A stretch of 60,490 nucleotides of DNA, counting the filler, from Gonapodya sp. JEL0774 (lineage: Eukaryota), in assembly GCA_027604505.1 (NCBI GenBank). It is 5 parts of 5 records of this genome, joined end to end, with 100 filler letters (N's around TTAATTAATTAA, not from the genome) between each part and the next. Parts side by side here need not be neighbours in the genome. Positions count along the whole stretch, not along the records: positions 12,179 to 24,243 come from JADIIX010000349.1; 4 more parts are not named here. One strand, 5' to 3'. Shown here piece after piece: positions 12,998 to 17,064 of the stretch. Position numbers and translations under genes: made by a program. Under the pieces are notes generated by a model. That model made no database searches. It was not told the DNA's origin and worked only from the letters and a program-made list of their open reading frames with translations. The number at the start of each line of letters is the position of its first letter. Position 1 is the stretch's first letter.

Positions 12998-13663
12998 TCA
13001 CACCTCAATTGTGCGTCGAGCATTGGAAAGTGCCTTGAATGCGCTTTCACCAGCCTCACCAATCGAGTTGACTGGAGTCAAAGTAGAGGAGAGAGAAGAG
13101 AGTAGAGAGGAGACCGTGTGTGAGTCAGACTCAGAAACTCTTGCGCGAGAGCGAGCGGGAGGTCACACTCTGATACTCACAATAAAGGTTAAGTGATGTC
13201 AAGGTGGAGTTGGTCTTGAGGGCCTCAGCCAGCGCTCTGGCGCCAGCCCCACCAATCGAGTTATCTGCAGTAGTAGAGTCCAGAGGAGAGAGAGGAGAGA
13301 GAGGAGACGGCGTGTGTGTGTGTGTGTTCGTGTGGGGGTGAGACAGACTCAGCGACTCTGGAGGGGGAGCGAGAGGGAGGTCACACTATGAGACTCACAA
13401 GAAAGGTTAAGCGATGTCAAGGTGGAGTTGGTCTTGAGGGCCTCAGCAAGCGCGCTGGCGCCAGCCTCACCGATCGAGTTCCCTGTGGGTTTGGTGGGCC
13501 GGGGTGGTGGTAAAATCATGCGATAGAAGACACATTAACATCACTATGCATAACTCGCCATTAGCCTTGCTGGACTCACCCATCAACGTTAGGGTCCGGA
13601 CGGCACTATTGTTTTTGAGCGCGTGGGCGATCGCCCTTGCTCCGGCATCTCCAATTGACTTCC
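12998..13663 (-). repeat. Tandem LRR exon-intron units (three 84-nt phase-1 exons plus a terminal exon)
   Basis: Exons 13399-13482 and 13181-13264 are near-identical. Their downstream introns share GTGAGT.TCA.AGTGTGACCTCCC.CTCGCTC and CT-rich tails. Confidence 0.9.
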
Positions 13664-15876
13664 CTTTGGTGGAGGGACGACAGTTGGAGGAGGGGGAACA
13701 GGTAAGACGGGAGTAGAGCGTCACGTTTCGCGACTACTTGGTGAGAGTAGAAACCCGCAAATTGAGACCCAACTCACACGACAGATCAAGTTTGGTTTCG
13801 TTGTTGGCTATGTCCTGCAGCACCTTGGTTAAAGCACCTGCCCCGGTTCTTTCTGTGTTTCCGAAATCTTTAGCTAGTAGGTTCGTGATTGTGGAGGCTT
13901 CGCATGAGTACCAAGTGATTTGGGTGGTGTATGCCAACTCACCCAACATCCATGTCAACAGGTCTTTCTCAGATGAAATTCTGGCAGGATCGCCTTTCGG
14001 CAGTGTCTTCTCCCGGATACGGTGAACACTCTTCAGAAGGGTTTGTGCAAGTTCTCGCTGCCCTTGGGAATAGTACGCTCTTGCGAGTGCGTGCTGGGCG
14101 GCCAGCAGATCCGGATGGTCTTTCGATAGGACTCTTTTCCTAGCAGCAATGACGAGTTTGAGCATGTTCACTGCCTTGTCTACTTGTCCGGTATACTCGT
14201 ATGCGAGGGCGAGCTCTTGCTGCGCCTCAAGCATAGAAATGTCCTCTTGTGTAGAGGCTGGATGTAGAAGGCGTCTGAATGTTTTATCCAGTTGGGCAAG
14301 CCAACCTCTCGCCAGTTGTTGTCTTCCAGAGACACATACTTCAAGCCATAGTGCTGCTTCTGCGAATCGTCCATCGGAGTTCAAGCACCGCCCAACCAGA
14401 AGACAAAGATCGTATCTCGGTTCCAGCTCCATTCCTTCGCCACTTCCCAGTACCTTCACGGCGTGCGGGAGGTACTCCCTCCATCGCTCTCGATTCTCCC
14501 ACTCGTTGGTGGGAAATATTGAGCTGATGTGTGTGATTGCCTCTTCCATCTTTTTCGACGCAAGGCGCTGTGTGCACACCCAGTCCCATGCCGCCAGGTG
14601 CACAAGACGGTGGAGATCATACACTTCATCCTCTCTGTTGTTTTCCTCTGAGCGACGTGACACAAATGCGTACCCGATGAGTGTATTGATCGCTACTTCC
14701 ATTTTCACGGCAGTCCCGGCGGTGGGCAGGATGGTTCGAGGGATGGACTTCCATTCGATACACGCCATGAAGCCCAGGATGTCCGCTGCAAGGAGATTTT
14801 CTTGAGTTATCCGCTTGAACGAGACCATCCACGTTTTGGCCACTGTACTTTGGGATTTCTCGTAATGGGTTTGGTCATGGAAGGCTTCGCTAAGAAGTTC
14901 CGCCGTGGATTCCTCCAGCAGTTCCCGATACCTCCTGATTGTAGTTGAAGTATTATTTAGGTACGCTGCTGCTTGAGCTATCGCAAGCGGAAGGTTTGTG
15001 AGTTCCTTGAGGAGTTTTGCGGTGTTCAACTGGTCCTCGAGCAATTCTTTTCTTTTGAGTGAATTCCTGAAAAACTCTACCGCCTCCTCGTAGCTCATTG
15101 CTTCCATATCGATGGTTTCAGCTCTTGCGAGGAATGTTCCCACCTTCAGAGGGCGGGTTGTGAACAGAATGAACCCTTGTTCGCTCTGTGGAAGGTAGTA
15201 ATCAATACCTCTACCCTGCTCAGTGTTGAGCATTATCTCTGCGTCGTCGGCATTGTCTACGATCAAGAGCCACCGTCCGGCTGCTTCCTCGCTCAAATAT
15301 CGCTTGACAGCCTCCTTTATGTCTTCCGTTGCCCCAGTCGTATGAGATATGCCAACTTTAATAGCCACCTCCTTGCACGCCTGCTCAAAGCTCTCCATGC
15401 TGAGCGCAGGAAACCAGAAGACTGAGTAGTCTGGATATGTCCCCTTCACTCTGTACGCAAACTCGAGTGCAACTTGCGTCTTTCCCACCCCACCGAGTCC
15501 CACAAGAGCTGCCCTCTGACAATCCTTATCGTCAAAGAGTTTTTTGTCCAAGGTCTCGAGGATGTGACCCCGTCCCACAAACTGTTTGTTCCTCGAAAAT
15601 GGAATGTAGTAGTGTGGCGGTGAGGAGCCGGGATTCGCATCAACTCTGAATTGAAAAGCAATGATGACATTCATGATATTGCAGCGGTCACAGGTACGGA
15701 AAGTGAGCACGCGGAGCCTTGAATGGTGGAGCTTACCTCGAGCCTTGGTTGTTAGAGTTGCCGATGTGAACGCGGCCACCTTCAATGTGCTGGGAGTGTA
15801 TTATTATGTTGGTGACGTTACTCGTCGGTGCAAGCGAATTTGGAAAGGTTTGTTGTCCATCATGGGTGGTCAGCAT
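12998..15876 (-). CDS. NLR (STAND) protein: N-terminal HET-s-like amyloid motif, NB-ARC, TPRs and C-terminal RI-like LRRs; about 777 aa
   Basis: Exons 15876-15737, 15645-13778, 13663-13580, 13482-13399, 13264-13181 and 13071-12998 are all GT-AG and phase-compatible, giving one open frame. Motifs: IPFSRNKQFVGR, P-loop GLGGVGKT, Walker B WLLIVDNADD, ILFTTR, NLPLAIAQAAAY, LHRLVH. TPRs (e.g. DHPDLLAAQHALARAY). LRRs (e.g. NSIGEAGASALAEALKTNSTLTSLNL). Confidence 0.88.
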
Positions 15877-16177
15877 TGGACAGATAGTTGGGACTGGGAG
15901 GGGGGTTGGGTGGTGCCAGAGCGGGAAGACAAGGATTTGTTGGGGAATTGAAAAGACGCACGGTCCACACAAGAGCAGAATGGCCGAACCAACAAGGATC
16001 AATGGTTTCGCCCTTCTGCAGTCCTTGAAAAGGGTCACGCGACAGGAAACCCTGCTTAGGCCGGCCTTGGGTGGCACAGCCACTATGGCCACCGCCCTAT
16101 CTAGCATCGCAAACTGGACAGAACAACTTCAGTCTCCAGAGGATTACTATCGCCCTCCGTTTTCACCTCCCACACTC
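15877..16177. promoter_or_regulatory. Probable shared bidirectional promoter region between the NLR and the het-S-like gene
   Basis: 301 nt between divergently oriented start positions. Inferred from geometry only; no specific motif identified. Confidence 0.45.
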
Positions 16178-17064
16178 GTGGCAGAGATTTTCGGGATCGT
16201 CTCGGGCGCTGTCTGTATCGCCCGGCATCTTCAGCACCTGTCACGAATGCTTCAACCACGTCCAAGTCGGTCGCCGCTTCGGCAAGGACTTACAAATGGA
16301 AACGCTCAACCTCGCGTTGCTCAAGTTTCGCCTTTCGCGTTGGGGTGATGTTGTCCACATTTGCGAAAAAGGCGGGCCAAGTTTCAGTGACGGCTCCGCC
16401 AACACGGATGAAGTGGCCCCTGCCGAGAGTACGCTTTATCATATGCTCGTGCTAATGGCGGACTCTGAGAGTGTAGCACAAGTACAAGTATGAAGATGTC
16501 ACCGTCGAGGACAAGTGTTCGGATGCGAAACCAAATGATTGAGCTTGCAACGCGTCGTCAGAACAAAGCCCCTCTGCGAACGATAGCTTCATGGGCACTG
16601 TATGACATGGGCACTTTATCAAGCTGGTGGAAGGCGTAATAAAGTTGCTCGACAATCTTGAGCAGGTATTTCCCGCACCGCCGGATTATGTGACAAGGCT
16701 CTTGATCGAAGACGCCAAGGCTGTGGAGAGTTTTGCCACTGACGCCATTGCTGGGGCACCAGGTGCGCAATCTCAGGATCCTCGAGTGGCCCAGATACTG
16801 AGGCTGGTGCAAGATCTGGCTGAGAAGGTGGACAAGCCTCTTAACAAAGAGTTGGACAGCGGGGCGACAAGGAAGGGAATCCATATAGAGAATACAGAGG
16901 TTGTGGACAGTGCGAAGATGCTCTTAGGAAATGTTTTTGGCAGAGGATTGCAAGGTCATGCTGTCCTACCGCAAGGTAACTCCAGTATAGACTTTGGAAA
17001 ACAACGGGTTGGGTTCAAGGCGAAGGTTCATATGAGAGACAGTTTTGTCACCTTCTGGAATTAG
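16178..17064 (+). pseudogene. het-S-like gene (HeLo domain + HET-s-type prion-forming domain), disrupted by at least 3 frameshifts and a GTG at the start position
   Basis: Reconstruction across frames gives (M)AEIFGIVSGAVCIA/GIFSTCHECFNHVQVGRRFGKD...RLSRWGDVV...ELATRRQNKAPLRTIASWALYD/...KLVEGVIKLLDNLEQVFP...IHIENTEVVDSAKMLLGNVFG...IDFGKQRVGFKAKVHMRDSFVTFWN*. This is collinear with Podospora HET-s. Frameshifts lie near 16221, 16480-16520 and 16610. Confidence 0.9.

Follow-up and report, generated by a model that had tools for sequence, protein, structure and literature searches.

The window, i.e., the whole stretch of 60,490 nucleotides of DNA from the aquatic, early-diverging fungus Gonapodya sp. 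JEL0774 analyzed here, contains a gene for a NOD-like receptor (NLR) lying head to head with a HeLo-domain gene, as in the NWD2/HET-S amyloid signaling pair of Podospora anserina. We consider it probable that the receptor is a native member of this type whose HeLo neighbor is broken, that predicted exons encoding leucine-rich repeats (LRRs) sit on a shortened tetratricopeptide repeat (TPR) sensor, and that amyloid templating would likely be directed to an unlinked intact effector, P0122 (HDU93_010001). The predicted extension of the receptor through five further exons into LRRs of the ribonuclease inhibitor (RI) type is its most unusual feature. A first-pass annotation had described a motif exon, a 301-nt spacing, two effector repeats and an FWN ending, and all of these are present (Table 1).

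The window consists of five contigs of about 12 kb joined by artificial spacers (N44-TTAATTAATTAA-N44), and genes across a spacer are not neighbors; the locus contig spans positions 12179–24243 (12,065 bases). Its NB-ARC exon is 100% identical to HDU93_005986 (P0001) and the effector tail is 99% identical to HDU93_005987, both of Gonapodya sp. JEL0774. These named matches bear out the earlier placement of the host outside Dikarya; Gonapodya is placed under Monoblepharidomycetes (PMC12258605).

Receptor gene and its amyloid motif

Splicing of six predicted GT-AG introns yields a 754-aa frame without a stop. GTRAGY occurs six times in the gene (2.9 kb), each time at a predicted donor, and the partial GenBank model P0001 places introns 2–5 as in our own gene model. 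The GenBank model begins within intron 1, so the motif is missed, as had been anticipated for this locus; the proposed first intron is itself borne out at the sequence level, with GTAAG...TTCAG ends and a predicted in-frame join of the motif exon to the NB-ARC exon. Exon 2 carries a P-loop (GLGGVGKT), a Walker B motif (LLIVDNADD), LPLAI and LHRLVH, conserved over 40 alignment rows, and both NB-ARC and TPR_10/12 pass the Pfam cut-offs. The receptor has the order expected of fungal NB-ARC-TPR proteins: its TPRs come after an NB-ARC in which the P-loop, Walker B and winged-helix motifs are intact. There is no N-terminal TIR, coiled-coil (CC)/RPW8 or death-fold domain, as the 46 codons of exon 1 hold the amyloid motif only.

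Of 19 non-Gonapodya effector tails, three yielded no repeat pair and were omitted; a profile of the 32 repeats in the other 16 was scored, ungapped and with one gap, against all six-frame translation windows of the stretch. Among these 138,568 windows, the receptor motif r0 ranked first, effector repeat r1 second and r2 fifteenth, and on these ranks the motif and repeats are more than chance resemblances. The suggested check by profile hidden Markov models succeeded for HeLo and NB-ARC, whereas PF17108 gave E 0.031 on r0, below the cut-off, and Pfam HET-s_218-289 matched neither the window effector tail nor P0122; the latter model matches only 38 of 155 published effectors with HET-s-related amyloid motifs (HRAMs), according to the accessible text of PMC4518210. 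The assignment to the NWD2/HET-S type of amyloid pair holds. All three paralogs annotated upstream of intron 1 (3/3) are compatible, in the other frame, with the motif core A-[RK]-hydrophobic-[HQ]-hydrophobic-G, a pattern picked post hoc whose background is 39 of 93,096 positions, and 2 of 119 other proteins within the first 20 offsets.

A 19-codon out-of-frame open reading frame (ORF) with two ATGs at its start (15863–15804, minus strand) overlaps exon 1, beginning 13 nt past the in-frame ATG, and might lower receptor translation under leaky scanning.

Leucine-rich repeats and receptor paralogs

Downstream of the TPRs, LRR_6 scores 43 bits on P0001 (cut-off 23.4) and is also above the cut-off in P0004, a paralog on another contig. 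This departs from the norm for fungal NLRs, whose sensors are TPR, ANK, WD40 or HEAT repeats without LRRs. A nucleotide-binding core and C-terminal LRRs are predicted to share one polypeptide, both in our gene model and in the GenBank models of two paralogs. The repeats resemble those of ribonuclease inhibitor and NOD2, and exons 5 and 6 represent a recent duplication, intron DNA included (78% over 241 nt). In the AlphaFold model, residues 605–692 of P0001 form beta-alpha repeats at moderate confidence (predicted local distance difference test, pLDDT, 55–77; predicted template modeling score, pTM, 0.71). Foldseek matched NOD2, Apaf-1, NLRC4 and plant resistosomes at the domain level only (TM-score 0.2–0.45). 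The relatives examined were the best 120 of 1,603 matches, with lengths of 323–1,029 only. By a crude count, the TPR array of the receptor is short, with one repeat motif against a median of five. An LRR query against the same best 120 of 1,603 matches found none in 114 non-Gonapodya proteins; it matched P0001, P0004 and, weakly, P0090 (HDU93_006776). The first-pass annotation was silent on LRRs, although its span covers the LRR exons.

Six Gonapodya NLR paralogs on six contigs form one clade, with a support of 0.97 for the group and of 93/96 for four of the six members in a careful tree. The TPR-only P0102 branches first and P0090 next. P0004 has the complete NB-ARC-TPR-LRR layout with five full repeats, in comparison to three in the locus NLR, and P0002 extends to the LRR cap. 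P0090 shows one weak LRR-like unit at its end, a low-complexity insert and TPRs not recognized by Pfam; its annotation may be cut short. From this branching order, we infer that LRR exons would have been added after the split of P0102.

That the LRR exons lie outside the mature NLR, through retention of intron 3 or as a separate gene, leaving an ordinary motif-NB-ARC-TPR receptor, appears improbable. The TPR-LRR linker is of low confidence in the AlphaFold model (residues 579–593), and P0003 is annotated without LRRs; however, that annotation ends in sequence matching intron 2 of the locus NLR, an equal junction is annotated on other contigs (P0002 and P0004), the full LRR exons are all 84 nt in phase 1, and splicing of intron 2 makes no difference to the frame that the cap helix shares with exon 2. 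Intron 2 keeps the frame and lacks a stop, so its retention could add a 23-residue linker, whereas retention of intron 3, which holds a stop at 13734 that precedes the full LRRs, would remove the full repeats. Several points weigh against the main reading: all introns are predictions, the array is short (three full and two partial units), and the paralogs were assessed from annotated proteins only.

Adjacent effector copy

The HeLo domain of the neighboring gene is clear, with PF14479 scoring 49.9 bits (cut-off 23.2) and the HeLo piece matching the HET-s structures 2WVN, 2WVQ and 2WVO at E values of about 1e-11 (2WVN, 9e-12); an Atlas search gave HeLo at 0.84, a lead only. The gene starts with GTG where relatives have Met, and no ATG was found in 16090–16240. 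Three to four frameshifts (near 16222, one or two at 16480–16520 with the deletion, and at 16606–16623) and a deletion of roughly 11–14 codons separate it from intact relatives, and the assembly holds no intact adjacent effector ORF of up to about 310 aa. Repeat r1 and the 15-residue loop agree with the known pattern of two repeats that each have Gly19 and are separated by 6–18 residues, whereas r2 has Arg at position 19, a Gly called perfectly conserved in the accessible text of PMC4518210. The tail is not of the canonical HET-s class (HRAM1), as position 3 is Ile rather than Asn, and a PDB sequence search with it gave chance matches only. Introns were rejected as the cause of the frame jumps, for relatives are longer over the broken stretches.

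As read from the assembly, the adjacent effector copy is probably dead. The first-pass annotation had presented it as a HeLo-domain gene, but the gene is not intact. That annotation had also seen the adjacent pair as a working receptor–effector module, which is probably wrong: several lesions, independent of one another, affect this copy of the effector, and the likely partner, P0122, is unlinked. We consider it very improbable that the pair functions and that the lesions stem from errors in the assembly or belong to a single allele in a heterozygote. The lesions are read from the assembly, and the window effector's branch is little longer than the P0122 branch (0.76 vs. 0.65), so decay is recent at most; yet at least six lesions of four kinds fall within 900 nt, while the adjoining 2.9 kb gene has none.

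An intact paralog as candidate partner

P0122 is an intact 307-aa HeLo-r1-r2 protein encoded in the same assembly on another contig of 4,374 bases. It shares 128 of 266 aligned residues with the window effector, the two are sisters in the tree (99/97), and both of its repeats have Gly19. Over 18 positions, r0 shares 10 residues with r2 of P0122, against five with the adjacent r2 and four with the adjacent r1. We regard P0122 as the likely partner of the receptor. No contig of that length carries any of the six NLR paralogs; signaling to it would therefore be in trans, as proposed earlier for Sphaerobolus.

By analogy with NWD2/HET-S (PMC4344463), ligand binding, which we would place at the TPR-LRR region, would cause the NB-ARC domains to oligomerize, and the clustered r0 motifs would fold into a beta-solenoid. 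This solenoid would convert the r1-r2 region of the effector, here presumably P0122, and the released HeLo domain would damage the membrane. The tree suggests that an ancestral motif-NB-ARC-TPR/HeLo pair was duplicated in the Gonapodya lineage and that several receptors may now share one effector.

Some evidence weighs against templating of P0122. Its r1 has a low profile score (4.3), and the residue at core position 18 is Asp. Near position 13, r0 has a gap and is one residue short in comparison to r2 of P0122 and published r0 motifs; the missing residue may break in-register stacking. The likeness of r0 to P0122 may reflect retained ancestry rather than co-evolution, because r0 is equally close to a published Hypoxylon r0 (12/20, by eye). 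Structure predictions were uninformative either way, both for a complex of two P0122 tails with r0 (median 0.26 against a mark of 0.34, in a run without folded controls) and for P0122 in AlphaFold (mean pLDDT 50, tail under 50).

The gap in r0 also bears on the possibility that the locus decays as a unit, i.e., that the effector died, r0 lost a residue and templates nothing, and the NLR drifts or signals otherwise, which we regard as unlikely. In addition to its gap, r0 has Gly for Ala at position 14, where three paralogs are compatible with Ala. In Podospora, likewise, nwd2 is a pseudogene where het-S toxicity has been lost (PMC4344463). On the other hand, the 754-codon frame is stop-free, the NB-ARC motifs are intact, r0 is the best profile match in 60 kb, and published HRAMs, r0 motifs included, contain one- and two-residue gaps (PMC4518210).

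Origin of the receptor

The NLR is likely native to Gonapodya, and a contaminant origin of the contigs, from an ascomycete or another source, is hardly credible. For such an origin, the named non-Gonapodya matches, among the matches listed, are all filamentous ascomycetes, no Gonapodya prolifera protein appears among those matches, and no conserved marker gene was found on the locus contig. Against it, the best outside identity is only 38–50% among the best 120 of 1,603 matches, the six paralogs, each on its own contig, group in a single clade, and the intron style is like that of the SepSecS gene: a CTRAY near the 3′ end is seen in 0/6 NLR introns and 0/2 hand-placed SepSecS introns, in comparison to a candidate CTRAY intron in 6/6 metagenome fungal loci with a motif–P-loop join. 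The composition of the whole locus contig is also nearer to the other four contigs (delta* 45–72) than to eight fungal metagenome loci (61–134), with some overlap; as a point against a native receptor, the NB-ARC/effector stretch alone is not separable by composition from other fungi.

Horizontal transfer from an ascomycete is plausible, a lead rather than a result, since the named outside matches are all ascomycetes and no Gonapodya prolifera protein was among the matches listed. The latter is a weak negative, as the word-based searches are insensitive: the HeLo piece found nothing, and P0122 found only three proteins. Two quick trees suggested nesting within ascomycetes (SH support 91 and 93). 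In the careful tree, the base was not resolved, and an approximately unbiased (AU) test on 24 rows, 22 of them from the best 120 of 1,603 matches and with long outgroups, did not reject a placement of Gonapodya outside the whole set of 18 further ingroup rows (p 0.336). An Atlas search with the P0004 tail returned only generic RI-type LRR clusters and did not place the LRR origin.

Comparison with known systems

The locus resembles NWD2/HET-S (PMC4344463) in its divergent adjacent genes, the single N-terminal motif on an NLR of the STAND class (multidomain signal transduction ATPases), and an effector in which two repeats, spaced by 36 residues, and an aromatic tail come after the HeLo domain. 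It differs in having NB-ARC, TPR and LRR instead of NACHT and WD40, a broken effector, a monoblepharid host and no Pfam HET-s_218-289 match.

The HRAM effectors HypCI4A_1_318309, HypEC38_1_21470, Antav1_424285/430800 and Gymlu1_170006 (file S1 of Daskalov et al. 2015, PMC4518210) formed the comparison set. As in P0122, they have a hydrophobic position 3, a loop of 15 residues that includes Trp and Pro, and a D-x-F-[WF]-D type tail. We take the codes HypCI4A, HypEC38 and Antav1 to denote the genera Hypoxylon and Anthostoma. The r0 motifs of the set (PMC4518210) share Gln at position 8 with the window r0, with 12/20 (HypCI4A_1_318309) and 9/20 identities by eye, whereas all these effectors are from Dikarya and the window r0 is one residue shorter. 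Gln at position 8 was dropped as a sign of a new motif class, as it occurs in published r0 motifs (PMC4518210); by these alignments, the motif type of r0 is already known. Since file S1 carries no class labels, no HRAM number was assigned to the group.

Fungal amyloid-NB-ARC-TPR NLRs, of which 68 are counted in Sordariales (PMC12258605), share 40–50% identity in NB-ARC and the TPR repeat type with the locus NLR, which differs by a shorter TPR array followed by RI-type LRRs. Plant and animal receptors with a nucleotide-binding site and LRRs (NBS-LRR; NOD2, NLRC4 and NRC resistosomes) have, as predicted for the locus NLR, a STAND core with C-terminal LRRs; unlike them, the locus NLR has an amyloid motif in place of a TIR, CC or death domain, TPRs between core and LRR, and few repeats. 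We infer that this likeness would be convergent, because the NLR core groups with fungal TPR NLRs.

Among 31 metagenome HeLo loci, 14 had too little flank; in the 17 with about 1 kb or more upstream, a divergent P-loop gene was present in 11 (three near-copies), and the motif exon was joined to the P-loop exon across an intron in 6 of 11 fungal loci tested. By these sequences, the head-to-head arrangement is common in other fungi. Loci L020, L022 and L024 (about 2000–6900) pair an intact HeLo-two-repeat gene, head to head, with an NB-ARC-TPR gene that is a distant relative. The HeLo frames of L013, L015, L016, L018, L019 and L026–L031 are interrupted, and L015 carries one more copy in inverted orientation. 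In the HeLo-repeat system, broken effectors may be frequent, or such frames may be assembly errors.

To date, fungal NLRs have been reported to use TPR, ANK or WD40 repeats, and no LRR NLR appears in the accessible text of PMC4986451 (2014), PMC9815663 (2022) or PMC12881547 (2025); the first reports no LRR motifs in 198 genomes and no chytrid matches. A survey of 122 proteomes that admitted LRRs includes G. prolifera and does not name JEL0774 in its accessible parts (PMC12258605). The amyloid-NB-ARC-TPR-LRR layout was not found described in fungi, and an LRR case could stand in the per-species table of that paper. Full-text searches, with most subscription journals outside their coverage, found no paper on the Gonapodya NLR family; one paper that they returned concerns NLRs of Mortierellomycota.

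Other features of the window

The SepSecS gene (344–1250, minus strand, at least two introns; coding match at 344–928, PF05889, 171 bits) lies on the contig preceding the locus contig. It had been cited earlier in placing the system, an argument that fails as given: because the gene is on a different contig across a spacer, it shows only other content of the assembly and is not linked evidence. The first contig also carries a UreF urease accessory gene (7812–8570, plus strand) and a protein kinase gene (9380–11900, minus strand). A 44-base tandem repeat (×5, 19977–20196) lies in non-coding DNA of the locus contig. On the next contig, a long minus-strand ORF holds, at 24569–25210, coding repeats of 42 bases (units of 14 residues) and a 6-base unit arrayed about 25 times. 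Two ORFs, 42616–44181 (plus strand, 522 aa) and 57795–58415 (minus strand, 207 aa), had no Pfam match at E 0.001; by eye, we take them to be ankyrin-like and BTB-like, respectively.

Table 1. Positions of the receptor, the effector and the spacers in the window.
Feature	Position	Strand	Description
NLR gene	12998..15876	−	Seven predicted exons, 754 aa, 0 internal stops; motif r0, NB-ARC, ~2–3 TPRs, RI-type LRRs
Exon 1	15737..15876	−	46 codons + 2 nt; single HET-s-related motif r0
Motif r0 (exon 1)	15810–15748, with r0 at 15807–15754	−	Profile ranking, published r0 motifs
Intron 1	15736–15646	−	91 nt, GTAAG...TTCAG, predicted; joins motif exon in frame to NB-ARC exon
Exon 2	13943..15645	−	NB-ARC, then short TPR array; Pfam, alignment
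Intron 2	13942–13874	−	69 nt, in frame, stop-free
Exon 3	13778..13873	−	Linker and LRR cap helix; equal cap segment in paralogs P0002 and P0004
Exons 4–6	13663–13580, 13482–13399, 13264–13181	−	84 nt each, phase 1, one 28-aa RI-type LRR apiece
Exon 7	12998..13071	−	Final partial LRR and stop; RRTIEV ending common to paralog P0004
Divergent intergenic region	15877..16177		301 nt, NLR ATG (15876) to first HeLo codon (16178)
HeLo-r1-r2 (het-S-like) gene	16178..17064	+	Likely pseudogene; FWN-stop at 17064
Effector repeat r1 (positions 3–21)	16879..16935	+	Gly19-Asn20 kept; profile rank 2
Effector repeat r2 (positions 3–21)	16987..17043	+	Arg at invariant Gly19; shortened aromatic tail after; profile rank 15
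Artificial spacers	12079–12178, 24244–24343, 36350–36449, 48440–48539		

Implications

NLRs are already known in chytrids, some of which have one or more per species (PMC12258605), and chytrid TIR-NLRs have also been described; the taxonomic novelty is therefore limited to the amyloid pair outside Dikarya and does not concern NLRs as such. Complete HeLo-HRAM-HRAM proteins were sought by profile in 2022, and the accessible report names only two Agaricomycetes beyond ascomycetes.

More tentatively, and with somewhat more doubt than belief, we propose that an amyloid cell-death pair of the Dikarya type entered a zoosporic fungus, where the receptor was expanded and gained LRRs built of one exon per repeat. 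This would be an independent fungal origin of NBS-LRR architecture, caught at a TPR-plus-LRR stage, and an LRR-sensing NLR whose killing runs through a HET-s-type amyloid, with several receptors converging onto one unlinked HeLo effector. An NBS-TPR ancestor has been proposed by Urbach and Ausubel (2017, as cited in PMC9815663). Surveys report LRR sensors to be absent from fungal receptors, whereas the Gonapodya NLR is predicted to end in LRRs. The short motifs make the receptor–effector wiring easily testable in vitro. The Gonapodya series (TPR-only, TPR with one LRR, three repeats and five repeats) would let the proposed TPR-to-LRR step be studied, and HET-s-type amyloid signaling would be extended to a zoosporic lineage.

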